DNA of 64,000 nt, from the NCBI GenBank assembly GCA_027306885.1, contig DAHUYV010000135.1, positions 508 to 64,507 of the forward strand, in the 5' to 3' direction. Source of the DNA: Candidatus Dormiibacterota bacterium (GTDB lineage: Bacteria; Chloroflexota; Dormibacteria; Aeolococcales; Bog-877). A program made the position numbers and the translations under genes. The notes beneath the pieces were generated by a model. That model did not search any database. It had not been told where the DNA came from and saw nothing but the letters and a program-made list of their open reading frames with translations. This document shows, one piece after another, positions 13,320-49,449 of the stretch (the stretch's first letter is position 1; every line of letters begins with the position of its first letter).

Positions 13320-13462
13320 AGGGGGTCAGCGTATACACCTGCCGGGCCGCCGCCACGGCGGCTTCTCGGCAGCGATGGTTAATGCAGGACGCGGCCCCGA
13401 TCCCGCACAATTCCTCCGATGTCGCATCCCCTCAGGCGGCCTGAGGCCGGGGGCGGTAGGCC

Positions 13463-15037: not shown

Positions 15038-15116
15038 TGGTGCGCCCAGAGGGATTTGAACCCCCGCAAACCCAGATCCGTAGTCTGGTGCTCTATCCGG
15101 GCTGAGCTATGGGCGC
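15038..15116 (-). tRNA. tRNA-Arg (anticodon ACG)
   Basis: Cloverleaf on the minus strand: GCGCCCA acceptor, loop CTACGGA, TTCAAAT T-loop, CCA encoded. Confidence 0.8.
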
Positions 15117-15592: not shown

Positions 15593-15677
15593 GCGCGGAT
15601 GGCGGAATTGGTAGACGCGCGGGGCTTAGAACCCCGTGGGGCGACCCGTCCGAGTTCGAGCCTCGGTCCGCGCACCA
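15593..15677 (+). tRNA. tRNA-Leu (anticodon TAG), type II long variable arm
   Basis: GCGCGGA acceptor, loop CTTAGAA, long variable arm, TTCGAGC T-loop, CCA encoded. Confidence 0.85.
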
Positions 15678-17995: not shown

Positions 17996-19245
17996 ACGAG
18001 CGGGAGGATCGCCGCCGCCACACCCGCTGCTCCTTCTGCAACAAGGGCCAGGACCAGGTGCGCAAGTTGATCGCCGGCCCGGGGGTCTACATCTGCGACC
18101 AGTGCATCGAGCTCTGTCAGGAGGTGCTGGAGGAGGAGAGCAAGGGGGCGGCGGCCCACCGGCCCCGCACCAACGTCGTCCCCAGCCCCCAGGCGATCTG
18201 GAACTCACTGAACCAGTACGTGGTGGGGCAGGATCAGGCCAAGCGGGTCCTGTCGGTGGCCGTATACAACCACTACAAGCGCGTCAATCACGCGCGGGAG
18301 GTGGGGGACGTCGAGCTCCAGAAGTCCAACGTCCTCTTGGTGGGCCCCACCGGCTGTGGTAAGACCCTGCTGGCCCAGACCCTCGCCAAGGTGCTGGACG
18401 TGCCCTTCTCGATCGCGGACGCCACCTCGCTCACTGAGGCGGGGTACGTCGGTGAGGATGTGGAGAACATCCTGCTGCGTCTCATCCAGGCCGCCGACTT
18501 CGACGTGGCCCGGGCCGAGCGGGGGATCATCTACATCGACGAGATCGACAAGATCTCGCGCAAGTCCGACAATCCCTCGATCACCCGAGACGTCTCCGGC
18601 GAGGGGGTGCAGCAGGCGCTTCTGAAGATCCTCGAGGGCACGGTCGCCAACGTCCCGCCCCAGGGTGGCCGCAAGCACCCGCACCAGGACTTCATCCAGA
18701 TCAACACCGCCAACATCCTCTTCATCTGCGGCGGGGCCTTCGAGGGGCTGGAGAAGCTCATCGAGCAGAGGGTCGGCCACCGCACCATCGGTTTCAGCAG
18801 CGAACCCGGGGGTCCCCGGACCAAGGAGAGCACCCAGATCCTCCACGAGCTCCAATCTCAGGACCTCCTGCGCTATGGACTGATCCCGGAGTTCGTGGGG
18901 CGGCTCCCGGTGGTGGTGTCGCTGGAGAGCCTCGACGAGGACGACATCCTGCACATCCTCACCGAGCCCAAGAACGCCTTCGTCAAGCAGTACGAGAAGT
19001 TCTTCGCCCTTGACGACGTCGAGCTGGTCTTCGAAGAGGGGGCGCTCCGGGCGATCGCCCACCGGGCGCTGGCCCTCGGCACCGGGGCGCGGGGGCTGAA
19101 GAGCATCCTGGAGTCGGTGCTGCTCGGCAGCATGTTCGCGGTGCCCTCGCGACCGGAGGTCAAGCGCTGCCTCATCACCGAGCGAGCCATCCTGGAGTCC
19201 ACCGAGCCCGAGCTGGTGGTGGAGGAGGAGGCCGCCTCGGCCTGA
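17992..19245 (+). CDS. clpX: ATP-dependent Clp protease ATP-binding subunit ClpX
   Basis: N-terminal zinc-binding domain CSFCNK...ICDQC; Walker A GPTGCGKT; IGF-like loop. Confidence 0.95.
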
Positions 19246-19412
19246 TCCCGCCGTCGGCGCGATCGGTCCGGGTACACTGGGTCGAGAGGGGCCCGGTGGC
19301 GGCAGGCCCGCATCTTGCTTCTGCTCGTCCTTTTTCGACGGGACGAGCCCGGCCCAAGGCAGTGACGGTGGAGTGGCGCTGGTGCCACCCGCCCGGACAG
19401 GAGTCATCGAGG
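19246..19412 (+). promoter_or_regulatory. structured 5' leader of metE, candidate riboswitch (cobalamin-like or SAM-binding)
   Basis: 167-nt GC-rich leader with GGTG...GGCCCGC...CACTGG/GCCACC elements that partly resemble B12-box features, followed by RBS GGAG 11 nt before the ATG. Confidence 0.3.
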
Positions 19413-21743
19413 ATGTCTGACAGCGCAGCCGGACGACTTACCACCACCACCCTGGGGTTCCCGCGGATCGGTCCAGGCCGCGAGCTCAAGCGGGCCCTGG
19501 AGTCGTATTGGGCCGATCGAATCGACGCCAGCGAATTGAAGAGCCGGGCGGCGGAGATCCGAGCTCAGCGCTGGAGGAGCCAGCGGGATGCCGGGATCGA
19601 CCAGATCCCCAGCGGCGACTTCTCCCTCTACGACCACGTTCTGGACACGGCGATCATGGTCGGGGCGGTCCCGGCGCGTTTCCAGCGATTGGGCCTCGCC
19701 GACGAGCTGGCCCTGACCTTCGCCATGGCCCGGGGAGCCGAGGGTCCGGTGGGCGAGGTTGCTCCCCTGGACATGACCAAGTGGTTTGACACCAACTACC
19801 ACTACCTGGTCCCGGAGTTGGAGACGGGCCAGCGCTTCAAGCTCAGCTCCACCCGACCGGTCGACGAGTTCCAGGAGGCGCTCGCCCTCGGGATCGAGAC
19901 CCGGCCGGTGCTGCTCGGTCCCCTCACCTTCCTCTCTCTCAGCAAGATCCCCGACAGCACCAAGTCGCCGCTGACACTGCTGGACGCCCTCCTACCGGTG
20001 TACGGGCAGCTCTTGGCCAAGCTTCGGGCCGCGGGTGCCAGCTGGGTCCAGCTGGACGAGCCCTGCCTGGCCCAGGATGCCCCGGTCGCCCTCCTGGAGG
20101 GCATGGAGCGTGCCTACTTTCAGCTGCGGCAGGCTGCCCCGGACCTGCGAATCCTCCTCGCCTCTTACTTCGGGGGGCTGGGACCAAACCTTGAGACGGC
20201 TCTCCAGCTACCGGTGGACGCGGTTCATCTGGACCTGGCCCGTGGCCCGGAGGACCTGGAGCCGGCCCTGGAGCTGGTGCCTGAGTCGCTGATCCTCTGC
20301 CTCGGGGTGGTGGACGGTCGCAATGTGTGGCGGTTGGACCCCGACCGGGCGCTCGCCGCCATCGGGAGGGCGGCGTCGAAGGTCGGCCCGCAGCGGCTGA
20401 TGGTCGCCCCGTCCTGCTCGCTCATGCACCTGCCGGTGACCGTGCGCGGTGAGGAGGGGGGCCTGGACGAGGAGCTCACCTCGTGGCTGGCCTTCGCCGA
20501 GGAGAAACTCGAGGAGGTCGTCCTCCTGGCCACCGGGCTGGAGCCGGGCGGCGCCCGTTCCGAGGGGATGGAGCGCTTGCGGGATTCGGTTCGGGAGCGC
20601 CGCGATTCCCCCCGCCGGCACCGGCCCGAGGTGCAGGCTCGGGCCCGAGCCGTCACCCCCGCCGACTTTCGGTCGGGGCAGAGCCCGAGCGAGCGACAGG
20701 CGTTCGCGGCGCGGCTTCGGCTCCCGCTCCTGCCCACCACCACCATCGGCTCCTTCCCGCAGGGCACCGAGCTCCGACAGGCGCGTGCCCGGCTGCGCCG
20801 CGGGGAGCTGGACCAGGCCGGCTACGAGGCGGTGATCGAAGAGGAGGTCCGCAGGGTGGTCCGCTTCCAGGAGGAGGCTGGGCTGGACCTCCTGGTGCAC
20901 GGCGAGCCCGAGCGCAACGACATGGTCGAGTACTTCGCCGAGCTCCTGGATGGGATCGCGACCACCCGGCAGGGCTGGGTCCAGTCCTACGGGTCGCGCT
21001 GCGCCAAGCCCCCGATCGTCATCGGCGACGTGCACCGGCCGGCGCCGATGACGGTGCGCTGGACCCGGTTCGCCCAGAGCCTCACCACTCGGCCGGTCAA
21101 GGGCATCATCACCGGGCCGGTCACCATCCTGCAGTGGTCGTTCCCGCGCGAGGACGTGACCCGTGAGGAGAGCTGCCGGCAGATCGCGCTGGCGTTGCGG
21201 GACGAGGTCTCCGACCTGGAGGCGGCGGGCATCACCGTGATCCAGATCGACGAGCCGGCGCTGAGGGAGGGGCTGCCCCTGCGCCGGGCCGCCCAGGCCG
21301 ACTATCTGAGGTGGGCGGTGGACGGCTACCGGCTCACCGCGGGGGGCGCCAGCCCGCCGGTGCAGGTGCACACTCACATGTGCTACTCGGAGTTCTCCGA
21401 CATCATGGACGCCATCCGTGAGCTGGACGCCGACGCCCTCTACATCGAGGCGGCCCGGTCGGGAATGGCGCTGCTGCACTCCCTGGCGGACTCCGGATAC
21501 TCCGGCCCGGTGGGTCCAGGCCTTTACGACATCCACTCGCCGGTGGTCCCCACCGTGGAGGAGATGGCGTCGCGACTCAGGGCGGCGGCCTCCGTCATCG
21601 CCCCGGACCGCCTGTGGGCGAACCCCGACTGCGGGCTGAAGACCAGGACCTGGGCCGAGGTGGACCCCTCTCTGCGACGCCTGGTGGGGGCCGCCCGACT
21701 GGTGGCCGCGGAGTTGGCGCCGGCTTCGGCCGGCGCGCGCTGA
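19413..21743 (+). CDS. metE: cobalamin-independent methionine synthase
   Basis: Full-length homology, including both UroD-like barrels. Confidence 0.95.
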   Translation: MSDSAAGRLTTTTLGFPRIGPGRELKRALESYWADRIDASELKSRAAEIRAQRWRSQRDAGIDQIPSGDFSLYDHVLDTAIMVGAVPARFQRLGLADELALTFAMARGAEGPVGEVAPLDMTKWFDTNYHYLVPELETGQRFKLSSTRPVDEFQEALALGIETRPVLLGPLTFLSLSKIPDSTKSPLTLLDALLPVYGQLLAKLRAAGASWVQLDEPCLAQDAPVALLEGMERAYFQLRQAAPDLRILLASYFGGLGPNLETALQLPVDAVHLDLARGPEDLEPALELVPESLILCLGVVDGRNVWRLDPDRALAAIGRAASKVGPQRLMVAPSCSLMHLPVTVRGEEGGLDEELTSWLAFAEEKLEEVVLLATGLEPGGARSEGMERLRDSVRERRDSPRRHRPEVQARARAVTPADFRSGQSPSERQAFAARLRLPLLPTTTIGSFPQGTELRQARARLRRGELDQAGYEAVIEEEVRRVVRFQEEAGLDLLVHGEPERNDMVEYFAELLDGIATTRQGWVQSYGSRCAKPPIVIGDVHRPAPMTVRWTRFAQSLTTRPVKGIITGPVTILQWSFPREDVTREESCRQIALALRDEVSDLEAAGITVIQIDEPALREGLPLRRAAQADYLRWAVDGYRLTAGGASPPVQVHTHMCYSEFSDIMDAIRELDADALYIEAARSGMALLHSLADSGYSGPVGPGLYDIHSPVVPTVEEMASRLRAAASVIAPDRLWANPDCGLKTRTWAEVDPSLRRLVGAARLVAAELAPASAGAR

Positions 21744-21752
21744 GGCCTTTGC

Positions 21753-24362
21753 TTGGAGCCCGCCTACCGGCCGGAGGAGGCAGAGCGTCGCTGGGGGAGA
21801 CGGTGGGCGGAGCTGGGCGTGGGCGTGGCGGACCCGGCCAGCCGCCTGCCAACCTTCTCGATCGCCCTGCCGCCTCCCAACATCACGGGGGCGTTGCACA
21901 TGGGGCACGCCCTCAACGCCGTGATCCAGGACAGCCTCTGCCGCTATCACCGCATGCGGGGCTACGAGGTGCTCTGGGTCCCGGGGACCGACCACGCCGC
22001 CATCGCCACTCAGAACGTCATCGAGCGCCAGCTGGCCGCCGAGGGCACCAGCAAGGAGGAGATCGGCCGGGCTGAATTCGACGCGCGGGTCGCCGAGTGG
22101 TACCGCAACTACCAGGGCCGGATCGTGGAGCAGCTCCGCGGCATGGGGGCGAGCTGCGACTGGACCCGGGAGCGCTTCACCCTGGATCCCGCCTATGTGC
22201 GGGTGATCCGGATCGTGTTCAAGGCCCTGTTCGACCAGGGGTTGATCTACCGCGGACCGCGGATCGTCAACTGGTGCCCGCGCTGCGAGAGTGCCATCTC
22301 CGACGAGGAGGTGGAGTACCGCGAGCACGACGACCTCTTCTACCAGGTGCGGTATCCGTTGGTGGACGGCGAGGGCGGGGTGGAGGTGGCCACCACCCGC
22401 CCCGAGACCATCGTCGCCGACGTGGCGGTGGCGGTTTCCCCCGGGGACCAGCGGTTCACCCATCTGGTGGGGCGGATGGTGCGGGAGCCGATCTCCGGGC
22501 GCACCATCCCGGTGATCGAGGACGCGGCGGTGGATCCCCATCTCGGTACCGGTGCCCTCAAGATCACGCCCGGGCACGCTCCCGAGGACTTCGAGATCGG
22601 TCTGCGCCACGGGCTTCCGGTCCTCACCGTGATCAGCCTCAAGGGGACCATGCAGGTCAAGGAGGTTCCCGAGCTGGACGGGCTGCCCGTGGCCGAGGCC
22701 CGGGAGCGGGCCGCCGAGCTGCTGCGCCGCTCCGGGGCGCTGGTGCGGGCCGACCCCATCACCCACCAGGTGGGCCACTGCGACCGCTGCGGCGCGGTGA
22801 TCGAGCCCCTGGTCACCCCGCAGTGGTGGCTTCGGATGGAGAGCCTGGCGGCGCCGGCGGCGGCGGCGGCGGAGCACGGCGAGTTGCGCTTTCACCCGCC
22901 CCACTTCCGCACCCAGTACCTGGGGTGGCTTCACGGCCTGCGCGACTGGTGTGTCAGCCGACAGCTCTGGCTGGGTCACCGCATCCCGGTCGCGACCTGT
23001 GCCAACGGCCATGTGTTTGCCTTCGTCGAGGAGCCCGAGCGCTGCCCACAGTGTGGGGATCGCCAGCTCTCCGCCGATCCCGACGTGCTGGACACCTGGT
23101 TCTCCAGCTCCCTCTGGCCGTTCGCGATCCTCGGCTGGCCGGAGTCGACGGTGGAGCTGGAGCGCTTCTACCCCACCTCGGTGCTGAGCACCGGGCGCGA
23201 CATCATCTACCTCTGGGTGGCTCGAATGGTGATCATGGGGCTCCGCTTCACCGGTGATCTGCCCTTCCGGGACGTGATCTTCCACGCCACCATCCTCGGC
23301 GCGGACGGGGCCCGGCAGTCCAAGTCCCGGGGCAACGTGGTGGATCCGCTGGAGATGGTGGGGCGGCACGGGGCCGACGCCCTGCGGGGTTGGGGCGCCT
23401 CGGTGGCGATGGGCACCCAGGACTCGCGTTTTGACGAGACACGGCTCGACGGCTTCTCCCGCTTCGCCAACAAGCTGTGGAACATGGTCCGGCTGCTCCA
23501 CCTGGTCCACTTCCCGGAGGGGGAGGGCCGAATCCCCCCCGCCCTGGAGTCGGGGAGGGGCGAGCTGGCCGACCGTTGGGTCATCTCCCGCCTCTCCCTC
23601 CTGACCGCCGAGGTCACCGAGGCGATGGATCGCTTCGACCTCGGGGCCGCCGTCGAGTCGATCCGGCGCTTCAGCTGGGACGAGGTGGCCGACTGGTACC
23701 TGGAGCTGGTCAAGCCCCGCTTGGATCGCGGCGACGCCGCAGCGCTCTGGACCACCCGGAAGGTGCTCCTCACCACCGTCGCGCTGCTGCACCCGATCAT
23801 GCCGTTCGTCACCGAGGAGCTGGCCCAGCAGTTCGAGGGCACCCCGGATACCCTTGATGAGATGCCCTGGCCGGAGGTGGCCCCTGACCTCCGCGACCTG
23901 GAGGCGGAGGCCACGATGTCCGCGTTCCAAGAGCTGGCGGGGCATCTCCGGAGCTGGCTCCAGGAGCTGGGCGTCAGCCGGCGTCGCGGCGGACCGCGGG
24001 TGCCCCTTCGGCTTGCGGAGCTGGCCGCCGAGCTCCGCCAGCCAGAGGTGAAGCGCTATCTGGCCCAGCTCACCCCGGTGGAGTGGGAAGAGAGCGAGAA
24101 TGGGGCGGCGGAGGGGTTCGCGACCCTGGCGGTCGGCGGCAGCGTCATCCACCTGGGAGCGGGGGCCGCTCGCCACCAGGAGGTGAGGGCGAGGCTGGAG
24201 CGCGAGGTGCGGGAGCTGGAGTCGGTGAGGGCGAGCCTGGAGCGCAAGTTGGCCTCCGAGTTCGCGGTCAAGGCGCCGGCCGAGGTGGTGGCGAGGGAGC
24301 GCGCTCGGATGGAGGCAGCGGTGCGGCGCGAGGATCTGCTCCGTCGCTCGCTCAAGGGCTGA
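21753..24362 (+). CDS. valS: valyl-tRNA synthetase
   Basis: HMGH and KMSKS(-like) class I motifs; C-terminal coiled coil. Confidence 0.95.
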   Translation: MEPAYRPEEAERRWGRRWAELGVGVADPASRLPTFSIALPPPNITGALHMGHALNAVIQDSLCRYHRMRGYEVLWVPGTDHAAIATQNVIERQLAAEGTSKEEIGRAEFDARVAEWYRNYQGRIVEQLRGMGASCDWTRERFTLDPAYVRVIRIVFKALFDQGLIYRGPRIVNWCPRCESAISDEEVEYREHDDLFYQVRYPLVDGEGGVEVATTRPETIVADVAVAVSPGDQRFTHLVGRMVREPISGRTIPVIEDAAVDPHLGTGALKITPGHAPEDFEIGLRHGLPVLTVISLKGTMQVKEVPELDGLPVAEARERAAELLRRSGALVRADPITHQVGHCDRCGAVIEPLVTPQWWLRMESLAAPAAAAAEHGELRFHPPHFRTQYLGWLHGLRDWCVSRQLWLGHRIPVATCANGHVFAFVEEPERCPQCGDRQLSADPDVLDTWFSSSLWPFAILGWPESTVELERFYPTSVLSTGRDIIYLWVARMVIMGLRFTGDLPFRDVIFHATILGADGARQSKSRGNVVDPLEMVGRHGADALRGWGASVAMGTQDSRFDETRLDGFSRFANKLWNMVRLLHLVHFPEGEGRIPPALESGRGELADRWVISRLSLLTAEVTEAMDRFDLGAAVESIRRFSWDEVADWYLELVKPRLDRGDAAALWTTRKVLLTTVALLHPIMPFVTEELAQQFEGTPDTLDEMPWPEVAPDLRDLEAEATMSAFQELAGHLRSWLQELGVSRRRGGPRVPLRLAELAAELRQPEVKRYLAQLTPVEWEESENGAAEGFATLAVGGSVIHLGAGAARHQEVRARLEREVRELESVRASLERKLASEFAVKAPAEVVARERARMEAAVRREDLLRRSLKG

Positions 24363-24379
24363 GCCCGGGGCGGGGCTGA

Positions 24380-26086
24380 GTGCTCTCCCTGGAACATCTC
24401 CCCGCCCTGGCGCTGCTGGCCCTGGCCGCTGCCGCGCTGGCCGCCGGAGTCCTGGGCGGCCTGCTCCCGCAGCGCGCGGCCATCGCGGGCCGGGTCCTGG
24501 TCCGCCTTGGCCTGCTCGCGACCCTGGGGATCCTGGTGGACTTGGTGGCCGTCCTGCAGCCGGCAGGTTCGGTCGCGGTGGTGCTCTGGCGCATCGCCCC
24601 CACTCTCCCGGTCGAGCTCCAGGTTGACGTCGCGGGAGCGGCGGTGGCGATCGCCGCGACCACGGCCGCTCTGCTGGTCAGCCTCTCTGGACGCGATGGC
24701 GCTCTGGCATCGGCCGCCATCGGGGTCGCGGCGTTGGGCGCAATCCTGGCCAGCCTCTCCGGCGGTCTGCTCAGCCTGTACATCGGCCTGCAGCTCTCGG
24801 CGGTGGGCGGCATCGGGCTCAGCTACGCCCGCTCGCCCCGGGCGCCCAGCGGGCGGATGGTGGTCGCGGCCGTGGCCGACCAGGCGGTCACCCTGTTGTG
24901 GCTGGGGGCGGTGGTCGGGCTGAACCGGCAGACCGGCACGATGCTGTTCTCCGGGATCCCCACCGCCGCCGTCACCCTGCCCCTGGCCGGAATCCTCCTG
25001 ATCCCCGGGGTGGTGCGCCTGGTGGGTGCGGGGCTGGTGCCGGACGCGGCCAGCTCGGCCGGAACCGCCCATGCCCTGGACCTCGCCGACTGGCTGGCGG
25101 TGGTCGCCGTCCCCACCGGGCTCACCGTCCTGCTGCGGGTCCAGCAGCTGTCGGGGGGCACATGGCCCAATCCCGCCCTCGGGACGGGGCTCGACGGCCT
25201 CGCCGTCATCCTCGGCCTGGGGGCTGCGCTGCTGGTGGTGCGCGGCGGCACGGGCGCTGGCCTCCGCCCCCTGCTCCTGGTGTCCGGAGCCATGGTGTTG
25301 CTCGGCTTCGGCGCCAACTCCGCCCCCGGCACCGGCCTGGCGGTGGCGGCCGCCCTCTTCCTCGAGCTTGGCGTGCTGGTGGCCCCGCGGCTCCTGATCG
25401 CCGCCCCGTCCACCTCAGCCGAACGCCCTCTGCCCGCCTGGGGGGGCCAGGCGGCGCTGGTCGCCGCCACCGCACCGCTGTCGCTGGGGGTGACGGTGGC
25501 GGTGGTCGGCATCGCCCTCGCCCTGGCGGCCGGCCCCGGGGCCGGCCTGTTGCCCGGGCTGGGCTACGGCGTGTCTCTGGCGGTCCTGGCCCTGGCGTGG
25601 GCCCGGCTGCGTCGGGTACGGGTCCAGCCGCTGCCCTGGCCCCTCGCCCTGCCGGCGCTCGGGCTGGCGCTGGCCGCGGCTCTGCCCGGCGGCGTGCTCG
25701 CTTGGGTCGCGGCCCCGATCGCCAACCCCGGCGGGGCCGGGCTGCTCCCACTCACCACCCCCGATCCGCTCTCCGTCCAACTTCCCGGTCTGCTCTGGCC
25801 AGCTGGCTACCTGGCCGTCATCGTTGTGCTCCTCGGGAGTGGGCTGTGGGCGTTCAACGTGATCTTCGACCGGCCCCCACCCGAATTCGAGGCGGTGGTG
25901 CCGGCCTCCCCCCCGGCCGCGGCGATCGGCTGGGTTCGAGGGGCCAGGGCATTCAGGGTGACCCTCAGGACTGCCCGCGCCGTCCGGCTGGGCCTGGGGA
26001 TCTCCAGCCGGGAGCTCGCCGAGCGCCCGGTCTGGATGTGGCTGGCGGCGACCCTGACGGTCGCCTGGCTGCTGGTCCAGCGGTGA
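24380..26086 (+). CDS. large polytopic membrane protein (568 aa), weak NuoN/antiporter-like N-terminal resemblance
   Basis: At least 12 hydrophobic helices; LSLYIGLQLSAVGGIGL resembles NuoN LYVGLELLSL; strong GC3 bias. Confidence 0.55.
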   Translation: MLSLEHLPALALLALAAAALAAGVLGGLLPQRAAIAGRVLVRLGLLATLGILVDLVAVLQPAGSVAVVLWRIAPTLPVELQVDVAGAAVAIAATTAALLVSLSGRDGALASAAIGVAALGAILASLSGGLLSLYIGLQLSAVGGIGLSYARSPRAPSGRMVVAAVADQAVTLLWLGAVVGLNRQTGTMLFSGIPTAAVTLPLAGILLIPGVVRLVGAGLVPDAASSAGTAHALDLADWLAVVAVPTGLTVLLRVQQLSGGTWPNPALGTGLDGLAVILGLGAALLVVRGGTGAGLRPLLLVSGAMVLLGFGANSAPGTGLAVAAALFLELGVLVAPRLLIAAPSTSAERPLPAWGGQAALVAATAPLSLGVTVAVVGIALALAAGPGAGLLPGLGYGVSLAVLALAWARLRRVRVQPLPWPLALPALGLALAAALPGGVLAWVAAPIANPGGAGLLPLTTPDPLSVQLPGLLWPAGYLAVIVVLLGSGLWAFNVIFDRPPPEFEAVVPASPPAAAIGWVRGARAFRVTLRTARAVRLGLGISSRELAERPVWMWLAATLTVAWLLVQR

Positions 26087-26691
26087 TCGGGGCTTCGCTG
26101 CTGGCGGCGGGCGGCTTCGTGGCGGCCGCGGTGGCCCTCCTGGCCAGCGGGCCGCGGGGGTTCTGGCTGAGTGCTGTGGCGCTGGGCCTGGGCTTCGGCG
26201 GCGTCGCATTCCTCGCTGGGGGCCTGGCATCCCTGGCGGTCCCAGCCCTGGTCGGCCTGGTTTGCGCGCTGATGATCGGGTTGGGGGGGCGGGCCGAGCG
26301 GCTGACTTCACTGCGCTGGCTGCTGGGCAGCGCGCCCACCGTCGGCCGACCGCGCCTGTTCGGGCAGCTCAGCCTGCGTCTCCTGTTGGGGCTGGGCGGC
26401 CTTCTGGCTGCCCGCCTGCTCTCCGGCCACCTCGGCGCTGGGACGGTGAGCACCCAGGGCCCGGCCTTCGCCTGCCTCTTCGCCTGGGAGGTTGGCGTGA
26501 TCCGGTTGGGGACCGGGCGCGGCCCCGGCGACCTCGCCCTGGGGTCCCTGGCGATCGGCATGGGAGCCGGCGCCTTCATCCTCCTCGACTCGGGCGGGAC
26601 GGCGTGGCCGGCGGCGGCGCTGGCCGCCGGTGTCCCCGCCCTCGCCCTGGGGCTGCTCGCCCACACCGTGCCGTGGGAGGTCGGCGGTTGA
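26083..26691 (+). CDS. membrane protein (about 202 aa), operon member
   Basis: GTG start overlaps the previous stop (GTGA); hydrophobic throughout. Confidence 0.5.
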   Translation: MIGASLLAAGGFVAAAVALLASGPRGFWLSAVALGLGFGGVAFLAGGLASLAVPALVGLVCALMIGLGGRAERLTSLRWLLGSAPTVGRPRLFGQLSLRLLLGLGGLLAARLLSGHLGAGTVSTQGPAFACLFAWEVGVIRLGTGRGPGDLALGSLAIGMGAGAFILLDSGGTAWPAAALAAGVPALALGLLAHTVPWEVGG

Positions 26692-27932
26692 ATCCCGCGC
26701 TGATCGCCTCCTGCCTGGTCCCGATCCCGCTGGCGGTGGCGATCTGGCGCTTGGCGGCGGGCCCGGGCCCGAGGCTCTGGGCCGGCCTCGCCATCGCGGC
26801 GGCGGCGATCGCGGTGCTGGTGGTGAGCAGTCCGCTGCCGGCCGGGCACTTCCGGACCCTGGTGGACCTGGACGTGGGCTCGTTGGCCGCCACCCGGCTG
26901 GTGGTGGGAGTGGTCCTGGGAGGGCTGGCGGCTCACCTTGTGGAGACCGTGGTGGGCCGCCCATCGGGCTCGGGGCTCGCCGCCACCACGGTGCTGCTGG
27001 CCGCCCCGGCGCTCCTGGTGGCGACCAGCACGGGGTTGGTCACGATCGCCATCGGCTGCGGGCTGCTCCTGGGGATCGTCTGGGCGCGCTGGACCCGGGT
27101 GGCCGGGCCCCAGCTTCCGGTGCGCAGCCTGGCCCGCGAGACGGTCCTGGCCGTCGGGGCGGTTCTGGCCGCAGCGGCCCTGACCCCATCTGTGGAGTCG
27201 GGTTCGGCGCCGGGGGTGATGGTCGCGATCCTCCTCGCCGCGGCCGTCGCCAGCCTCATGGGGGTGGTCCCCTTCTCGATCCTGCCGGAGGCGGCGCGGC
27301 GGGTGGGTCCCGCCGAAGCCGCTCTCTGGCGGGTCTGGGTGCTGCCGGTGGGAGCGCTGCTCGGGCTCCGACTCGTTGCCGCCACGCCCCGGCCGGTCGG
27401 GGTGCCGCTGCAGGAGCTCCTCATCGCCCTCGGGGTGGCATCGGCCATCATCTGGGGGGCTCACTCCATAATCGCCGACCCCGAGGCCCGGTACTGGAGT
27501 TCCCTGGCCGCCGACTGCGGGCTGATGGCGGTGGCGGTGGGCCTGGGAAGCCCGACCGCGGTGGCGGCGCTCCTCCTTCTCCTCATCACCCATTGGCTCG
27601 CCGGTTCCGTCCTCGGCGAGAACACCGGGCGGCGTTCGCAGCTCCTCGCCTGGGTCGGAGTGTCCGGGACCCCGCCGTTCGGTGGCTTCACCGGCCGGTT
27701 GCTGCTGGTGCTCGCCGCCGCCCCGATCAGTGGGGCGCTGGTCGGGCTGCTCCTGCTGGCGAGCGGGCTCCAGCTGGCGGGGGCAGCGGTGGGCATGCGC
27801 GCCGCAGCCGGGACCGCGGCGCCCGGGGCTCTGCGTCGAGAGCTGCCGGCTCTGGCGGTGGCGATCGCGGCTCTGGCCCTGGGGGTGCTCCCCCAGCAGG
27901 CGCTGAGCTGGGTCTTTGGGGTGCACCTGTGA
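26688..27932 (+). CDS. polytopic membrane protein (about 414 aa), operon member
   Basis: TTG start overlaps the previous stop (TTGA); multiple transmembrane segments. Confidence 0.5.
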   Translation: MNPALIASCLVPIPLAVAIWRLAAGPGPRLWAGLAIAAAAIAVLVVSSPLPAGHFRTLVDLDVGSLAATRLVVGVVLGGLAAHLVETVVGRPSGSGLAATTVLLAAPALLVATSTGLVTIAIGCGLLLGIVWARWTRVAGPQLPVRSLARETVLAVGAVLAAAALTPSVESGSAPGVMVAILLAAAVASLMGVVPFSILPEAARRVGPAEAALWRVWVLPVGALLGLRLVAATPRPVGVPLQELLIALGVASAIIWGAHSIIADPEARYWSSLAADCGLMAVAVGLGSPTAVAALLLLLITHWLAGSVLGENTGRRSQLLAWVGVSGTPPFGGFTGRLLLVLAAAPISGALVGLLLLASGLQLAGAAVGMRAAAGTAAPGALRRELPALAVAIAALALGVLPQQALSWVFGVHL

Positions 27933-28657
27933 ACCACCTGCTGATCGCCCTCAGCCTCCTGGCCGCTATCTGCCTCTACCCCGGAGGGTTGACGCTGGTG
28001 GCCGCGGCGGCGGGGGCCGGGCTGGGATTCCTGCCCTTTGGCGGGGGGCAGGAGGGTGGGCGGCTCCGCGGACTGGCCGGCCCCCACCCACCGGTCACCC
28101 TGGCGGCCGCCGTCCTGGTGGTGCTCACCCTGCCCTGGCCCGGCAACCCCCTGGCTCAGCTCCTCCCTCTGGGGCTGGCCAGCTCCCCGGTTGGAGGGGT
28201 GCCGGTCACGATCGCCGGGCTGCTGTGGCTGCGGCCGCTGGCCGGGGGAGAAGGGGGCACCCGTCCAGCCATCCTCTACCCGGGGTTCCTTGGCATCCTG
28301 CTTCTGACCCTGGCCCTCACCCTGCACAGCCCAGGGTGGGAGGGGGTGGTCGGGGCGAGGGGCGCGGGTGCGGAGGTCGGGCGGGTGATCGTCGGGGTGA
28401 TCGGGCTGGCCTCGCTGCCGCTGTGGGGCGGGAGCCCCGCCCGGCCTCGGGGCGGGCTCACCTGGGCGCCGGTGATCGCCCTCTGCCTGTTTCTGATCAT
28501 TCCGGGGGTTGCAGGCTGGCCCGTGCCGGTTGCCCTGGGGCTCTGGGTGGTCGCCTCAGCGCTGGCGGGGGTGCTGGCCGGTCTCGGTGGCCGGGCCCTG
28601 GGCTCAGCTCAAATGGCCGGCTTGGCGGCCAGCGCTGGTAGAATATGGATCCCGTGA
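27929..28657 (+). CDS. membrane protein (about 242 aa), operon member
   Basis: GTG start overlaps the previous stop (GTGA); hydrophobic. Confidence 0.5.
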   Translation: MNHLLIALSLLAAICLYPGGLTLVAAAAGAGLGFLPFGGGQEGGRLRGLAGPHPPVTLAAAVLVVLTLPWPGNPLAQLLPLGLASSPVGGVPVTIAGLLWLRPLAGGEGGTRPAILYPGFLGILLLTLALTLHSPGWEGVVGARGAGAEVGRVIVGVIGLASLPLWGGSPARPRGGLTWAPVIALCLFLIIPGVAGWPVPVALGLWVVASALAGVLAGLGGRALGSAQMAGLAASAGRIWIP

Positions 28658-28733
28658 AGCTGACCCCGGTGACTTGCTCCACGGTGGCCGGTGCATCAAC
28701 GCTGGAGTCGGCGTTTGGGCAGGGCGGACGGCA

Positions 28734-29408
28734 GTGACCGAGCTGGTTTTGGCGTCCGGATCGGACCGCCGCCGGGAGCTGCTGCAGAGGCTGGGCCTGC
28801 GGGTGACGGTGGTCCGTCCCGACATCGATGAGACCATGCCGCCCGGGGTCTGCACCGACCTCGCGGTCCAACTCCTGGCCCGGGCCAAGGCTCACGCGGT
28901 GGTGCCATCGATGGGCGCCGGCGCTGCCTGCATTCTCGCCGCCGACACCGTCGTGGTCGGCCCCAGCGGTCCCCTCGGCAAGCCGTTGACCGTCGCCCGA
29001 GCGCGGGAGATGCTGCTCGAGTTGCGCGGGCAGCGCCACGTCGTCCTCTCGGGCATCTGCGCTCTCTGTCCCTCCACCGGGGAGGAGCGGATCGGGGTCT
29101 CTCGCTCGGCCGTGCGGATGCGGGACTTCGGCACCGATGAGCTGGAGCAGTACCTGGCCGGCGGTGAGCCCCTCGACAAGGCCGGGGCGTACGCCGTCCA
29201 GGGGCTGGGGGGAGCCCTGGTCGAGGCCATCGGCGGCCGCACCGACACCGTCATCGGCCTGGACTGCCAACTGGCCATGCGACTGCTTGGCGAGGTGGGG
29301 TACCCGGATCCACTTCCCACCGCCCCCGACCGCCAGGTGGTGCTGGGCAAGCACGCCAACACCAGGCGCCCTCTGGCCAGCTCCAACCACGGCGGGGGCC
29401 CGCGCTGA
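28734..29408 (+). CDS. maf: Maf-like nucleoside triphosphate pyrophosphatase
   Basis: LVLASGSDRRRELL N-terminus and AGAYAVQGLGG motif. Confidence 0.85.
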   Translation: MTELVLASGSDRRRELLQRLGLRVTVVRPDIDETMPPGVCTDLAVQLLARAKAHAVVPSMGAGAACILAADTVVVGPSGPLGKPLTVARAREMLLELRGQRHVVLSGICALCPSTGEERIGVSRSAVRMRDFGTDELEQYLAGGEPLDKAGAYAVQGLGGALVEAIGGRTDTVIGLDCQLAMRLLGEVGYPDPLPTAPDRQVVLGKHANTRRPLASSNHGGGPR

Positions 29409-30355
29409 AGCGTTCGCTGAGAGGGCTGGCAGCCGCGCTCCCGCTGCTTGCCATAGGGGGCGGCGCAGTCGCCGGCTGCGGCTCCAGCCCGACGCTGTCC
29501 GCGCTGAAGGTCTCGACCCAGGTGGTCTCGCTGGGTGGATATGCCACCTCCAACCAGGTGGCGCAGGGGACTGCCACCGACGTCCAGATGACGATCACCA
29601 ACGTGGGCACCGGGGCCGTGGAGGGGGTGACCCTCAGGGTGCAGGTTCCCTCCGGCCTCACCTACACCAACACCGTGTCGGTGGCGGAGAACGGCGACGC
29701 GGTCCGATCGGCCGACATCTCGCCGGTCTCCCGCGACGCTACCGTGACCTGGGGGTCCTGGACGATCGGCCCGGGCTCGCCGGGGCTGCTCAGCCAGGTC
29801 GTGGTCACGGCCCAGTTCTCGGCCACCGGGGCCAGTGGGGCGGCGGCCATCGTGCCCCAGGTGTTTGCGACCGGCTATTCCAGCGCCCTCACCGGCGCCG
29901 CGCTGACCCTCCAGGTCACCCCGGCACCCTCCCTGGATTTGACCCTGAGGGCGAGCCCGAGCTCGGTGAAGGCCGGTGGAACCATCAGCTACGTGGCCAC
30001 CATCACCAACACCGGCAGCGGCTCCGCGCCGGGCACGGTGCTGAGCGTGACCCTGCCCTCCGACTTCGACTACCAGTCCACCAACTCCACTTCGGGCAAC
30101 GCCAGCACCGGGGGAGCGACCTACCCCGTGGTTGGGTCGGTGATCCCCAACTGGATCGGCTTCGACATCCCCGGCGAGGGGTCGGGGGGGCCGGGGGTCC
30201 TCAGCCTCACCTTTCAGGTCAAGGTGCTGCCCGATGTCGGGGCCGGGGTGTACCAAGCCTCGGCCACGGTGGTGGCCGGCACCGGGTCCTCGTCGGAGAA
30301 CCAGCTGCAGCTGAACTTCACCGGACTGGCGCCGGTCCAGGTGACCGGGCCCTGA
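29405..30355 (+). CDS. secreted lipoprotein with two DUF11 (conserved repeat) domains; probable CTG start
   Basis: Signal peptide plus lipobox LKRSLRGLAAALPLLAIGGGAVAGC. Repeated ...TITNTGSG...VTLPSD... DUF11-like units. No ATG/GTG/TTG upstream of the signal peptide. Confidence 0.65.
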   Translation: MKRSLRGLAAALPLLAIGGGAVAGCGSSPTLSALKVSTQVVSLGGYATSNQVAQGTATDVQMTITNVGTGAVEGVTLRVQVPSGLTYTNTVSVAENGDAVRSADISPVSRDATVTWGSWTIGPGSPGLLSQVVVTAQFSATGASGAAAIVPQVFATGYSSALTGAALTLQVTPAPSLDLTLRASPSSVKAGGTISYVATITNTGSGSAPGTVLSVTLPSDFDYQSTNSTSGNASTGGATYPVVGSVIPNWIGFDIPGEGSGGPGVLSLTFQVKVLPDVGAGVYQASATVVAGTGSSSENQLQLNFTGLAPVQVTGP

Positions 30356-30470
30356 CCGAGCCCGGTCGGCGGTCTGATAAACTGCGCTCGACGTAGGCCC
30401 CAAGGGGCTTTCTCGCCTGCGCCTGGGAACCACGGCGCCCAGGCCCCACAGCCGCTGGTCGGGAGTTCGC

Positions 30471-31073
30471 ATGTACGCCATAGTCCAGGTCGGTGGCCGC
30501 CAGTACCGGGCGGCGGCCGGCAGCCGTGTCCTGGTCGACCGCCTGCAAGTTGAGGCGGGGGCGCCGATCGTGCTGGACGACGTGCGCATGCTGGTGGCCG
30601 AGGACGGCGACGGCAGTGCCACCGAGGTCGGCACTCCCAAGGTGGACGGGGCGCGGGTGAGCGCCACCGCTGTGTCCCACCTGCGGGGCCCCAAGGTCGT
30701 GGTCTTCAAGTACAAGCCCAAGAAGCGCTACCGGCGCACCCGCGGTTTCCGCGCCGAGCTGACCGAGCTGCGCATCGAGCGGGTCCTGCGCAAGGGCGAG
30801 GTGGAGGAGCCGGTCGAGACTCCGAGCGCGGCTGTCGCGCCGGCCTCGAAGACCCCCCGCCGGCGCACCCCAGCCGCCGCCAAGGTGGCGGACGAAGCGC
30901 CGGTGGTGGCGGCGAAGGAGGCGGCGGAGCTGGAGGTGCCGGTGGCAGCGGCCCCCGAGGTGGCCGCGGTCCTGCCCGAGGAGAAGCCGGTCGCCAAGCC
31001 CGCTCGCAAGCCGCGCCGGCCCGCCGCCGGCGCGACCGAGCCGGACCAGACAGGAGACCAGGATGGCTCATAA
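30471..31073 (+). CDS. rplU: ribosomal protein L21 with about 95-aa A/P/E/K-rich C-terminal extension
   Basis: [12 protein letters not shown]... L21 core (about 103 aa) followed by a low-complexity tail. Confidence 0.9.
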
Positions 31074-31332
31074 GAAGGGTGGCGGCAGCAGCCGCAACGG
31101 CCGCGACAGCCAGTCCCAGCGGCTGGGCGTCAAGGTCTACGGGGGCCAGGAGGTGAGCGCGGGGGCCATCCTGGTGCGGCAGCGGGGGACCAGGATCCTG
31201 GCCGGCCCGGGAGTCGGAGTGGGCCGCGACCACACCCTGTTCGCGCTGACCCCGGGGCAGGTCACCTACCAGCCCTATCGCACCAGCCGCACCAGGGTCA
31301 CCGTCCACTCCACCGCCGGCACCGCTGGCTGA
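31063..31332 (+). CDS. rpmA: ribosomal protein L27
   Basis: [17 protein letters not shown]-terminus. Confidence 0.95.
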
Positions 31333-31362
31333 CCAGGCGGTCGGGCCGGGCCCGAACCCCTC

Positions 31363-32661
31363 ATGTTCCTGGACGAGGTTGAGCTGCAGCTCCAAGGGGG
31401 CCGTGGAGGCGCGGGGTCGAACAGTCTGCGCCGCGAGAAGTTCGTCCCGCGGGGCGGCCCGGACGGCGGGGACGGAGGCCGAGGCGGGGACGTGATCCTG
31501 GTGGCTGACGCCGCCATCTCATCTCTCCAGCGATACCAGCTCGAGCGGCGCTTCACAGGTCACCCGGGCGGGCCCGGGGAGGCGGCCCGTCGCCACGGCG
31601 CGGACGGGGAGGAGGTGGTGCTGGCCGTTCCCTGCGGCACCCTGGTCTTCGATCTGAGCTCCGGTAGGCTGCTGGCGGATCTCGACCGCCCAGGCGTGCG
31701 GCTGGTGGCGGCGCCGGGGGGACGTGGGGGGCGGGGCAATACCCACTTCACCTCCGCCACGCTGCAGACCCCGCGGCGGCGCGAGTTGGGTGAGCCCGGT
31801 GTCGCCGCGGGGGTGCGCTTGGAGCTCCGCCTCATCGCCGACCTCGGTCTGGTGGGCCTTCCCAACGCCGGCAAGTCGAGTCTCCTCGCGTGCCTCACCG
31901 GGGCCCACCCCCGGGTCGCGGAGTACCCGTTCACCACGCTCAGCCCCAACCTCGGGGTGGCCGAGGGCGATCGCGGCCGTTCGGTGACGATCGCCGACGT
32001 CCCCGGGCTCATCGCTGGTGCACACCTCGGCGCCGGACTGGGAATCGGGTTCCTCCGCCATCTGGAGCGCACCAGGGGGCTGATCCAGGTGGTGGAGGTC
32101 AGCGCGGGGCCGGAGGCGGCGGTCGGGGCGCTTCTCGAGGTCCAGGAGGAGCTCCTTTCCAGAGGGCCGGAGCTGGCGGCGAAGCCGCGCCTCGTGGCGG
32201 CCAACAAGGTTGACCTCCTGACCGCAGACGAGCTCCCCGGAGTCCTTGGCGCGCTGCGCGCCGCCGGGACCCCGGCGGTGGAGGTGGTCCCGGTATCCGC
32301 CCTGACGGCGGAGGGGACGCAGGAGCTGCTCAAGCGGGCGGTGGGTCTGATGGGGGCACCCCCGTCTCCAGCGGGGGACCAGGGATCGTACCGGCTGTAC
32401 CGCGGACCGCACCGCCGGGAGCGGGGCTTCACGGTGGAGCGCCTGGAGGGCCGCTACCGGGTGGAGGGTGACGTGCTCACCCGGCTGGTCGCGACGGCCG
32501 ACCTGGACGATCCGGACGCGGTGGCCCGGCTGCAGCGGAAGTTGCGCCAGCTCGGGGTCGAGACTGCACTGGCGGAGGCGGGGGCGGTCGGCGGGGAGGA
32601 TGTCGAGATCGGGGGGGAGGAGTTCACCTTCGTCCCGGACGCCGCCGAGTTCCAGCCTTGA
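31363..32661 (+). CDS. obg: GTPase Obg
   Basis: Obg fold glycine-rich N-domain; G1 GLPNAGKSS. Confidence 0.95.
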   Translation: MFLDEVELQLQGGRGGAGSNSLRREKFVPRGGPDGGDGGRGGDVILVADAAISSLQRYQLERRFTGHPGGPGEAARRHGADGEEVVLAVPCGTLVFDLSSGRLLADLDRPGVRLVAAPGGRGGRGNTHFTSATLQTPRRRELGEPGVAAGVRLELRLIADLGLVGLPNAGKSSLLACLTGAHPRVAEYPFTTLSPNLGVAEGDRGRSVTIADVPGLIAGAHLGAGLGIGFLRHLERTRGLIQVVEVSAGPEAAVGALLEVQEELLSRGPELAAKPRLVAANKVDLLTADELPGVLGALRAAGTPAVEVVPVSALTAEGTQELLKRAVGLMGAPPSPAGDQGSYRLYRGPHRRERGFTVERLEGRYRVEGDVLTRLVATADLDDPDAVARLQRKLRQLGVETALAEAGAVGGEDVEIGGEEFTFVPDAAEFQP

Positions 32662-36813: not shown

Positions 36814-37030
36814 GGTGTGAGGGCTGCCATCCGTCCGGCGATTATGGCAGGCCCGCCTGAGAGCCCCCGTCCCGCCGGCACCGCGGCGGCGGTCACGGGA
36901 GCGTGGCGATCAGTTCACGACGGTGAAAAGCGCTGGTGATCAGGGATGAATTCCGGGGTGCCGGTGGGAGACTTGGCGCCGGCCCACCCGGGTGGACCCC
37001 CACCTCCACCAGGAGTTTGAAACCCAGAGT

Positions 37031-38353
37031 ATGTCCGCAGCCACAATCAGCGCTCCGCCCAGCTCTCGCAATCAGATCGGCTTCCCCCCGGTGCCCCAGA
37101 GCCCCAAGGAGGCCGGCCTGCCGTTCTCCTTCATCTGCGACCTGGTGCTCAAGGTCATGTACTTCAACGGGGGCATGCTGGGCCGGGACCTGGCCCGTCA
37201 TGTCTGCCTGCCCTGGAACATGGTGTCCGACGCGATCAAGTTCCTCTCCGACGAGGGGTACTGCGGGACCACCGGGATCCGCGGGACCGTGGGAAGTGAC
37301 TCCGGGTTCGCCGAGGGGCTGCAGTACGCCATCAGCCGCACCGGTCGCGAGCGGGCGCGAGAGCTGATCGAGGTCAGCCAGTACGCCGGGCCGGCCCCGG
37401 TGCCGCTGGAGGTGTATGTGGCGGTGGCGCGCTACCAGGGCCGAACCGGCCCCATGGTGACCCACCAGCTCCTCCGCTCCGCCCTGGACCGCCTGGTCCT
37501 GCCACCAAGCGTTCTGAACCGCCTGGGCCCGGCTCTAAGCTCGCGTCAGTCGATCTTCCTGTACGGCCCGCCCGGCAACGGGAAGAGCACGATCGCGTCA
37601 GCCTGTGCCACCCTGCTCGGAGACCCGCTCTTCATCCCCCATGCCCTCTATGTCAAGGGCGAGGTGATCCGGATCTTCGACCCGGTGCACCACAAGCCGG
37701 TCCCGGCCGAGCTGCCCCCCCACGACACCCGCTGGGCCTTCTGCACCCGGCCGGTGGTGATGGCCGGGGGCGAGCTCACCGGCCGCGAGTTGGAGCTCAG
37801 CTTCGACCCGCGGATGGGGTTCTTCGAGGCCTCCCTCCAGCTCAAGGCCAATGGGGGGCTCTTCGTGGTGGACGACTTCGGCCGGCAGCAGCTCTCCCCG
37901 CAGGACCTGCTCAACCGGCTCATCGTGCCCCTCGAGGCCGGCTTCGACTACCTCAACATCTCCCGGGCGGGGACCACCGTCCAGGTCCCGTTCACCGAGA
38001 TCCTCATCCTTTCCACCAACCTCAAGCCCCGGGACCTGGTCGACGAGGCCTTCCTGCGCCGGATCCGCTACAAGGTCGAGGTGCCCAACCCCTCGGTGAT
38101 CGAGTACGGCCGGATCTTCCGGCGGGCTTGCGAGAGCATGGGGCTCACCTACGACCCCGACGCGGTGAACTACCTGCTGGACGAGCACTACCACAAGGCG
38201 GGGCGGCCCCTGCACGGCTGCGAGCCCCGGGACATCCTGGACCACCTGGTCCATGCCGCCGCCTACTTCGGGGTCGAGCCCCGGCTCACCCCAGAGCTCC
38301 TGGACCACGCGGTCTCGGCGTACTTCGCGAACCTGCAGGGCGAGGACGACTGA
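37031..38353 (+). CDS. orphan AAA+ ATPase with N-terminal winged-helix-like domain
   Basis: Walker A GPPGNGKST, Walker B LFVVDDFG, sensor-1 LILSTN, Arg finger RRIRY; MarR-like wHTH at N-terminus. Confidence 0.75.
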   Translation: MSAATISAPPSSRNQIGFPPVPQSPKEAGLPFSFICDLVLKVMYFNGGMLGRDLARHVCLPWNMVSDAIKFLSDEGYCGTTGIRGTVGSDSGFAEGLQYAISRTGRERARELIEVSQYAGPAPVPLEVYVAVARYQGRTGPMVTHQLLRSALDRLVLPPSVLNRLGPALSSRQSIFLYGPPGNGKSTIASACATLLGDPLFIPHALYVKGEVIRIFDPVHHKPVPAELPPHDTRWAFCTRPVVMAGGELTGRELELSFDPRMGFFEASLQLKANGGLFVVDDFGRQQLSPQDLLNRLIVPLEAGFDYLNISRAGTTVQVPFTEILILSTNLKPRDLVDEAFLRRIRYKVEVPNPSVIEYGRIFRRACESMGLTYDPDAVNYLLDEHYHKAGRPLHGCEPRDILDHLVHAAAYFGVEPRLTPELLDHAVSAYFANLQGEDD

Positions 38354-38689: not shown

Positions 38690-38765
38690 TGGTGGAGCGA
38701 AGGGGACTTGAACCCCTGACCTCTGCCGTGCGAAAGCAGCGCTCTGCCAGCTGAGCTATCGCCCC
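38690..38765 (-). tRNA. tRNA-Ala (anticodon CGC)
   Basis: GGGGCGA acceptor with a G3:U70 pair; anticodon loop TTCGCAC; CCA encoded. Confidence 0.85.
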
Positions 38766-49448: not shown

Positions 49449-49449
49449 G

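Follow-up and report, generated by a model that had tools for sequence, protein, structure and literature searches.

A conserved four-gene operon with two predicted antiporter-like subunits behind valS in Dormibacterota and a related soil lineage

We analysed a 64,000-nucleotide (nt) stretch of a Candidatus Dormiibacterota metagenome-assembled genome (MAG), hereafter the window, in which four plus-strand membrane-protein genes, here called g1, g2, g3 and g4, lie directly 3' of the valyl-tRNA synthetase gene valS. Judged by their modelled folds, the products of g1 and g3 are very probably antiporter-like subunits, g1 being of the MrpA-N/NuoL kind and g3 of the MrpD/NuoN kind. By sequence comparison, g2 and g4 are lineage-restricted orphans that make up two new small families. 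We found no description of this gene cluster in the literature, and no cultured representatives of Dormibacterota have been reported (PMC10608941). What is new here is the combination of two hyper-divergent antiporter-like subunits with two new small families in a minimal, clade-specific operon, all four families being present in every Dormibacterota locus examined.

Ion translocation in Mrp antiporters and in respiratory complex I is driven by antiporter-like subunits. Their coupling mechanism is debated around a few lysine and glutamate residues considered invariant (PMC7419157). The operon, which is under strong purifying selection, presents a natural variant in this respect, since the fold, both breaks in the modelled g3 helices and probably the lateral helix are kept, while the key residues are swapped or lost and the complex would be reduced to four subunits, two of them lacking recognisable relatives. 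Should the operon prove to transport ions, it would reveal which elements of the canonical relay can be dispensed with; otherwise, it would be a case of the antiporter-like fold put to a new use. In either case, two proteins deposited as "hypothetical" gain an annotation at the level of fold.

Predicted folds of g3 and g1

The clearest antiporter-like subunit of the operon is g3. Its AlphaFold2 model (predicted local distance difference test score, pLDDT, 79.6; predicted template modelling score, pTM, 0.85) has 14 transmembrane (TM) helices with breaks at residues 192-198 and 327-331. The best 50 listed Foldseek matches in the Protein Data Bank (PDB) are solely antiporter-like subunits, namely MrpD, MrpA, Nqo13/14, NuoN/M and NdhB/D, with expectation values (E) of 1e-8 to 1e-6 (best 9e-9), template modelling scores (TM-scores, query) of 0.71-0.80 and a probability of 1.00. 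Profile comparison by hhalign placed g3 at 95.2% (E 2.8e-8, 379 columns) against a MAFFT alignment of the E. coli paralogues NuoL/M/N, HyfB/D/F and HycC, and at 88% against five plasmid-borne MrpD sequences. Among 23 g3 orthologues, 18 match the NCBIfam model "Na+/H+ antiporter subunit D" below threshold, the best at 1.9e-6. A g3 profile run against PDB sequences gave weak matches to ND2 (7tgh_2B) and NdhD (7eu3_D) on the motifs of TM10-12, and in these three helices RYxxxxxD, HWLAG and GxPPFGGFxGR of g3 stand in register with AYxSxSH, HGL and GxPxxxxFxGE of NuoM. The same profile search with g1, g2 and g4 returned no match, and none of the four window proteins matched Pfam or NCBIfam (E<=10) or PADLOC (E<=1).

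The g1 model (pLDDT 76.9, pTM 0.79) contains ~16 TM helices, including a terminal one. Foldseek matched it to MrpD (9a6h_B, E 3.6e-10), NuoN, MrpA (7d3u_A), HycC and NuoL with a probability of 1.00; the TM-scores (target) against MrpD and NuoN were 0.63-0.68, and the alignments to NuoL, NdhF and MrpA extended over 640-680 columns. NuoM and MbhH are also among the Foldseek matches of g1 and g3. The hhalign signal of g1 was 50% (E 1.7e-4, 423 columns) against E. coli NuoL/M/N, Hyf and Hyc, and 46% against MrpD. In the model, a beta-hairpin stands between TM2 and TM3, which is a hallmark of antiporter-like subunits; beta-hairpin elements link these subunits in the Mrp structure (PMC7419157).

A local alignment with NuoL places the g1 helix LYIGLQLSAV on the GWEGVG motif of TM5, and hhalign aligned Q138 of g1 with E144 of NuoM and, separately, with E144 of NuoL. 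A first-pass annotation of the window had reported a faint similarity to a NuoN/Mrp helix in the first of the four proteins only. The TM5 motif and the fold match uphold that helix in g1, but the restriction to g1 fails, as g3 gives the clearer signal.

The C-terminal end of g1 (residues 522-567) is proposed, on the basis of the model, to be the equivalent of the lateral helix HL and TM16 of MrpA/NuoL. The hydrophobic moment of residues 522-548 is 0.36, compared with 0.21 for shuffled sequences, of which a median of 9% reach it, and the pLDDT of this segment is 50-64. Its conserved motif consists of R544, E548, R549 and P550. Elsewhere, the g1 model has a break in the TM7 region (186-199) and a continuous helix at 353-383; in the hhalign alignment the GxPxxxGFxxK segment is deleted, and the C-terminal half-channel is poorly conserved.

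We also considered g1 and g3 as recent paralogues, which hhalign (0.6-6%) did not support. The tblastn cross-matches between them (26-28% identity) may be compositional, because they were obtained without a low-complexity filter or composition correction.

Layout and coding evidence

The four overlapping genes had been proposed in the first-pass annotation, and their coordinates, lengths and overlaps all agree with our results (Table 1). Stop and start codons overlap by 4 nt at each junction, as GTGA between g1 and g2, TTGA between g2 and g3, and GTGA between g3 and g4. A crude hydropathy scan gave ~14-16, 6-7, 12-14 and 7 membrane spans for g1 to g4, respectively. The GC content of the window is ~72-76%, and the composition of g1-g4 matches that of the flanking DNA. 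When GC content was resolved by codon position, a plus-strand pattern of ~0.8/0.55/0.9 was seen throughout, and the frame switches exactly at 26083-26086, 26688-26691 and 27929-27932. The AT skew is strongly negative over 24400-28600, reflecting an excess of T at second codon positions, the pattern to be expected of genes for hydrophobic proteins.

Ratios of nonsynonymous to synonymous substitution rates (dN/dS; Nei-Gojobori, five close pairs) were 0.12-0.18 for g1, 0.03-0.09 for g2, 0.06-0.11 for g3 and 0.12-0.29 for g4. Given these ratios, the frame-specific GC content at third codon positions (GC3) and the conserved lengths and overlaps, g1-g4 are real genes under purifying selection, and the earlier claim of genuine coding sequence rather than GC-rich frame artefacts is borne out by the GC3 frame switches, dN/dS and the conserved boundaries. 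The mechanical list of open reading frames (ORFs) extends genes 2-4 far 5' (24898-26691, 26262-27932 and 26630-28657); these frames are indeed open far upstream and run into the neighbouring genes, as had been noted. The accompanying suspicion that gene callers had missed or merged the operon proved wrong, because the exact proteins of 568, 202, 414 and 242 amino acids (aa) are already deposited separately in NCBI as "hypothetical proteins" of a Candidatus Dormiibacterota MAG, and gene callers give four separate genes for relatives in public assemblies.

Neither promoter nor terminator signals were detected within the g1-g4 operon, no terminator-like site was seen in the gap between valS and g1, and no Rfam families or tRNAs were found in the g1-g4 region. 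As this gap measures 17 nt here and 14-25 nt in relatives and no terminator was recognised in it, valS and g1-g4 are probably co-transcribed.

Distribution and synteny

A scan of one genome per GTDB species yielded 37 Dormibacterota loci. The order metE-valS-g1-g2-g3-g4-maf-DUF11/CLIPPER-rplU was found in all 37, wherever the contig reaches; gene lengths vary little, and nearly all junctions retain the 4-nt overlap. For g1, there are 44 orthologue clusters with 41-59% identity, all of 543-591 aa. Weak g1 matches (31-34% identity) led to a second, deeper lineage from soil and peat, whose genes are marked here with a prime. A metagenome scan seeded with its g3 gave 79 peat and soil loci, 38 of which are at least 9 kb long. 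Each of these 38 carries valS, a membrane protein with a double zinc ribbon (DZR), g2' and/or g3' at the expected spacing, maf and CLIPPER, with clpX upstream and rplU-obg downstream where the contig is long enough.

The g1' and g4' query sequences were too divergent for detection by tblastn in most loci of the second lineage. The ORF ends of locus L055 show the same overlapping four-gene layout, all four genes are present among the called genes of L041, and L042 has g1'-g3' up to the contig end. In every locus long enough, maf follows g4. Housekeeping proteins of the second lineage are 49-78% identical to those of the window, as compared with 60-95% within Dormibacterota. Homologue searches with g2 and g3 found nothing beyond the two lineages. 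On these sequence comparisons, the operon is ancient in the clade, fixed in position and apparently absent elsewhere, which rules out a local insertion. That idea had been raised earlier for the region 3' of valS, and it is refuted by the fixed valS-g1-g4-maf arrangement in the 37 Dormibacterota loci and in the long loci of the second lineage; the comparison of this region in relatives found the arrangement conserved across both lineages.

The conserved block as a whole reads valS-g1-g4-maf-CLIPPER-rplU-rpmA-obg-nadD-rsfS, and the DUF11/CLIPPER-repeat protein (window 29522-30355) always lies 3' of maf in both lineages. A similar order, valS...maf...rplU-rpmA-obg, with mreBCD and minCD in between, is presumably that of B. 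subtilis. The gene metE stands between clpX and valS in all Dormibacterota loci and not in the second lineage. The second lineage has a protein of ~150 aa between valS and g1' (L041 7529-7984; L042 7529-7993; the same place in L047-L119), in which TM helices at the N-terminus are combined with a double zinc ribbon (Pfam DZR) at the C-terminus; Dormibacterota proper lack this protein. It might serve the complex proposed below as an accessory or regulatory subunit.

Defects are seen in some MAG loci: in L015 (13541-14284) g4 contains an in-frame stop, g4 of L033 (13547-15016) runs on to 489 aa, and in L025 (9932-11637) g1 is cut to 514 aa and separated from g2 by 160 nt. These defects are probably assembly or sequencing errors, pseudogenisation being the alternative. 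SMAG MAGs with a Dormibacterota-type locus (L012, L016, L022; P0120) are titled Nanopelagicaceae, Acidiferrales and Micrarchaeaceae/Micrarchaeia archaeon in NCBI, and these titles are probably taxonomic mislabels.

Substitutions at the canonical relay positions

In Mrp, the lysines of TM7 and TM12 are absolutely conserved and essential, the glutamate of TM5 pairs with the TM7 lysine, and the TM8 lysine connects the half-channels (PMC7419157). In NuoL, E144 and K229 are universally conserved (PMC4938563). We mapped the corresponding positions of g1 and g3 to NuoM by hhalign and counted the residues in alignments that span both lineages (33 g1 and 26 g3 sequences; Table 1). At TM5, g1 of the second lineage reads GVEIAGVG. 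In g3, P329, P330 and F334 are also found in 26 of 26 sequences across both lineages.

Residues that are invariant across the lineages are concentrated in two regions, the N-terminal half of g1 (R154, P194, R213, P245 and R253) and the C-terminal half of g3 (R268, Y269, D276, H302, P329, P330, F334 and R337). These are the halves that meet between neighbouring subunits in Mrp and complex I. In Mrp, the coupling point where neighbouring halves meet is formed by the TM5 glutamate of MrpA and the TM12 lysine of MrpD, which lie 7 Å apart (PMC7419157). All four families contain on average fewer than one lysine per protein. The genome as a whole is also lysine-poor, so a low lysine content is not diagnostic and the argument rests on specific positions.

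Table 1. Genes, motifs and mapped relay positions of the operon (window coordinates)
Feature	Coordinates	Strand	Description
valS	21753..24362	+	Valyl-tRNA synthetase, from translation; orthologues with tRNA-synt_1 and Anticodon_1 domains
g1	24380..26086	+	568 aa, GTG start, 17 nt past the valS stop at 24362
g1 residues 65-82	24572..24625	+	Beta-hairpin between TM2 and TM3 (model); DSSP strands 65-73 and 76-82
g1 residues 133-144	24776..24811	+	TM5 motif LYIGLQLSAVGG; Q138 at the conserved TM5 Glu position
g1 residues 522-567	25943..26080	+	Arg-rich amphipathic helix 522-548, then C-terminal TM helix 550-567 (AlphaFold2, 3' of a low-confidence loop)
g2	26083..26691	+	202 aa, GTG start
g2 residues 111-150	26413..26532	+	Conserved polar core RLLSGHLxAGTVxTQGPxFACLFxxEVGxIRxGTGRGPxD
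g3	26688..27932	+	414 aa, TTG start
g3 residues 192-199	27261..27284	+	TM7 break (DSSP 192-198), GVVPFSIL (consensus GLLPFSxW); aligns with NuoM PLHGWLPDA
g3 D276 and H302	27513..27593	+	TM10 (NuoM H322) and TM11 (NuoM H348), by hhalign; polar residues of the C-terminal half-channel
g3 residues 324-339	27657..27704	+	TM12 break, GVSGTPPFGGFTGRLL; R337 at the TM12 Lys/Glu position (NuoM E407)
g4	27929..28657	+	242 aa, GTG start
maf	28743..29408	+	Pfam Maf, E 7.5e-49; ~85-nt intergenic gap after g4
g1 138			NuoM E144 (TM5): Q 25/33, E 8/33; E in all four second-lineage sequences
g3 136			NuoM E144 (TM5): Q 16/26, E 3/26, other 7/26
g3 190			NuoM K234 (TM7): V, L, A or I
g3 P220			NuoM K265 (TM8): P 26/26
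g3 D276			NuoM H322 (TM10): D 26/26
g3 H302			NuoM H348 (TM11): H 26/26
g3 R337			NuoM E407/Lys of TM12: R 26/26

The orphan subunits g2 and g4

The most conserved of the four proteins is g2 (52-77% identity), for which ~7 TM helices are predicted. From 1.84 billion proteins, its profile retrieved only 12 representatives (E<=1e-3). In the polar core, all 45 sequences from the two lineages have R141 and 44 of them have R146; F93, R96, R141 and R146 are essentially invariant across both. When g2 members were compared with Pfam and NCBIfam, no recurrent family emerged, and the weak matches were scattered over single members.

The least conserved is g4 (27-52% identity), also with ~7 predicted TM helices. 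Its conserved features are an N-terminal MNHLL...YPGG, PWPxNP, and W137...GAE149xGR152. Against Pfam and NCBIfam, g4 gave isolated weak matches in one or two members, the sole multi-member one being CrcB (2 of 22). We rejected g2 and g4 as counterparts of NuoA, NuoH, NuoJ or NuoK, and as counterparts of MrpA-C/B, C, E, F or G (alignments from five operons), with hhalign values below 1% in each comparison.

A proposed membrane complex and its alternatives

By analogy, g1-g4 may encode one four-subunit complex of the Mrp/complex I membrane-arm type with ion translocation, a reading to which we give an even chance. All four genes always occur together, in keeping with such a complex. We infer complex formation, the arrangement of the subunits and transport from the operon structure and from the analogy with Mrp. 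The four proteins would be made in fixed stoichiometry by translational coupling at the 4-nt overlaps and would assemble into an Mrp-like membrane complex. In such an assembly, g1 would be distal, with its predicted lateral helix, on the cytoplasmic side, running over and clamping g3 and its terminal TM helix anchored beyond g3. On the side of the Mrp cation module, g2 and g4 would replace the small subunits (MrpA-C/B/C/E/F/G or NuoH/J/K/A). The N-terminal half of g1 (Gln/Glu138, Arg213 and Arg253) would face the C-terminal half of g3 (Asp276, His302 and Arg337) and form a single coupling point like that of MrpA and MrpD. A network of arginine, histidine, aspartate and glutamine, in place of the canonical lysine and glutamate chain, would carry ion translocation, and the activity would most likely be an ion translocation linked to the proton motive force, either cation/proton exchange or a related, electrostatically coupled transport.

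Several points weigh against this proposal. The complex and the arrangement of g1 and g3 rest on operon structure and analogy, and nothing about function can be read from the neighbours valS and maf. By hhalign, neither g2 nor g4 resembles any small subunit of Mrp or Nuo (<1%). The essential lysines and glutamates of the superfamily are lost, namely the lysines of TM7 and TM8, the TM12 lysine, which has become arginine, and the TM5 glutamate, which is mostly glutamine; g1 lacks the TM7 lysine as well, and arginine is a poor proton carrier. The model of the g1 C-terminus has a pLDDT of 50-64 and an amphipathicity modestly above that of shuffles, and g1 appears, from its model, to lack the TM12 break.

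A more far-reaching view is that g1-g4 represent a previously unrecognised class of machine, assembled around antiporter-like subunits and confined to Dormibacterota and their relatives, with a minimal set of four subunits, an Arg/His/Asp/Gln relay, the two orphan 7-TM subunits as a new partner module, and a housekeeping role other than classical Na+/H+ antiport, which could involve another substrate or electrostatic or conformational coupling. We hold this view only tentatively.

Among the alternatives, the operon could encode a membrane anchor or energy-coupling module for a peripheral partner encoded elsewhere, comparable to DabB-DabA, NdhD3/F3-CupA or MbhH-hydrogenase, so that the transport chemistry would depend on a partner outside the operon. 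Modules of this kind often draw on antiporter-like subunits, HycC, MbhH and NdhD/F are among the fold matches, and the degenerate Lys/Glu chain suggests a role other than standard proton pumping. However, no linked soluble partner was seen in more than 100 loci of two lineages, where the flanks are always valS (with the DZR protein in one lineage) and maf, and the lack of any Pfam or NCBIfam match at E<=10 means that no similarity to NuoH, NuoB/D or DabA was detected; we regard this alternative as rather improbable. A similarly low probability is given to a pseudo-antiporter, in which the fold is kept, ion translocation is lost and the proteins have a structural or scaffold role, for example in envelope biogenesis or division. 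The loss of the TM7, TM8 and TM12 lysines and the change from glutamate to glutamine in TM5 would fit this alternative, as would the poorly conserved C-terminal half-channel of g1 with its seemingly absent TM12 break and the constant housekeeping context beside maf, in an ancestral valS...maf...rplU-rpmA-obg neighbourhood. Gene neighbourhood is weak functional evidence, however, and the buried polar residues are strictly kept at half-channel positions (D276, H302 and R337 in 26 of 26 g3 sequences, and only Gln or Glu at g1 138), a pattern that speaks for a working polar pathway and not just a scaffold; in g2, too, the polar core is strongly conserved, and the dN/dS of this gene is 0.03-0.09.

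The remaining alternatives are much less probable than these. GT-C glycosyltransferases, O-antigen or peptidoglycan polymerases, or other polytopic envelope enzymes are also large polytopic proteins, and g1 has conserved aspartates (D234 and D237) that could suit such an enzyme. These aspartates are not conserved in the second lineage, no Pfam or NCBIfam match was obtained, and the best 50 listed Foldseek matches of g1 and of g3 are all antiporter-like subunits, none of them GT-C. The GT-C fold, which the first-pass annotation had listed among the families to be searched, is thus rejected for g1 and g3, and enzymes of this kind are very unlikely. Finally, the four ORFs could be frame artefacts, miscalled genes or a recent insertion after valS, given that long spurious ORFs arise in all frames at 75% GC. 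The frame-specific codon bias, the purifying selection, the composition shared with the flanks, the orthologues in 37 genomes that share 27-77% identity and keep the gene boundaries, and the same order in the second lineage reduce this explanation to a negligible probability.

Other features of the window

The sole terminator-like hairpin found in 19000-31500 lies at 21722-21747, at the junction of the metE stop and the valS start, with the TTG start of valS (21753) within a few bases of it. Three methyl-cycle genes were found, namely ahcY (427-1734), metK (1765-3033) and the cobalamin-independent metE (19296-21743). An ApbE flavin transferase is encoded at 49432-50433, followed by an ORF of ~414 aa without a Pfam match (50316-51560) and a NuoF/RnfC-like protein with Complex1_51K, SLBB and NADH_4Fe-4S domains (51542-52864). 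The region 49432-52864 may be a flavin-based redox module that is unlinked to g1-g4. Further ORFs with coding-like GC3 and no Pfam match at E<=1e-5 lie at 36950-38353, 47638-48789, 6097-6957 and 12594-13325. The window carries four tRNAs, Arg(acg) at 15038-15116, Leu(tag) at 15593-15677, Ala(cgc) at 38690-38765 and Ala(ggc) at 42785-42859, and beyond these no Rfam family reached the gathering score in the whole window.

Comparison with known systems

By Foldseek, g1 and g3 share the ~14-TM fold of the antiporter-like superfamily (Proton_antipo_M). At threshold, no window protein matches PF00361 or NCBIfam NuoN/MrpD, and the Glu-Lys pair of TM5 and TM7 and the lysines of TM8 and TM12 are not found in them. 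The same fold occurs in the membrane arm of complex I (NuoL/M/N with NuoH/J/K/A), in NDH-1, and in Mbh and Hyf/Hyc; g3 aligns with NuoM over 379 columns, and g1 aligns with the TM5-TM6 region of NuoL, including E144. Unlike complex I, g1-g4 include only two antiporter-like subunits, with changed key protonatable residues. The operon contains no NuoH-like, Q-module or redox gene, and none was seen among the genes called in the flanks that we examined.

The DAB/MpsAB and NDH-1MS systems for CO2 uptake (DabB, NdhD3/F3) are small complexes around one or two antiporter-like subunits, and they provide a precedent for the use of such subunits beyond antiport and respiration. All of them need a DabA or CupA partner, which is encoded next to the membrane subunit, whereas g1-g4 have no such neighbour. 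A Pfam scan of the window genes flanking the operon on both sides revealed no DabA (PF10070), and none was seen among the called genes of related loci.

Mrp (Mnh/Pha, CPA3) has six or seven subunits, compared with four in g1-g4, where no MrpA-C/B, C, E, F or G is detectable. The operon also differs from Mrp in lacking the TM7 and TM8 lysines, in having arginine in TM12 and mostly glutamine in TM5, and in the seeming absence of the TM12 break from g1. The likenesses are that both systems contain two adjacent antiporter-like subunits, g1 with a proposed C-terminal lateral and anchor helix like MrpA-N and g3 a plain 14-TM protein like MrpD, and that for both models MrpD and MrpA rank at or near the top of the fold matches, the best sequence signal of g3 being MrpD. 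Both are all-membrane, tightly coupled operons, and the large-small-large-small order of g1-g4 is collinear with mrpA-(B,C)-D-(E,F,G). Although the comparison of small subunits sets it apart from Mrp, the g1-g4 complex would, on this analogy, work most like Mrp.

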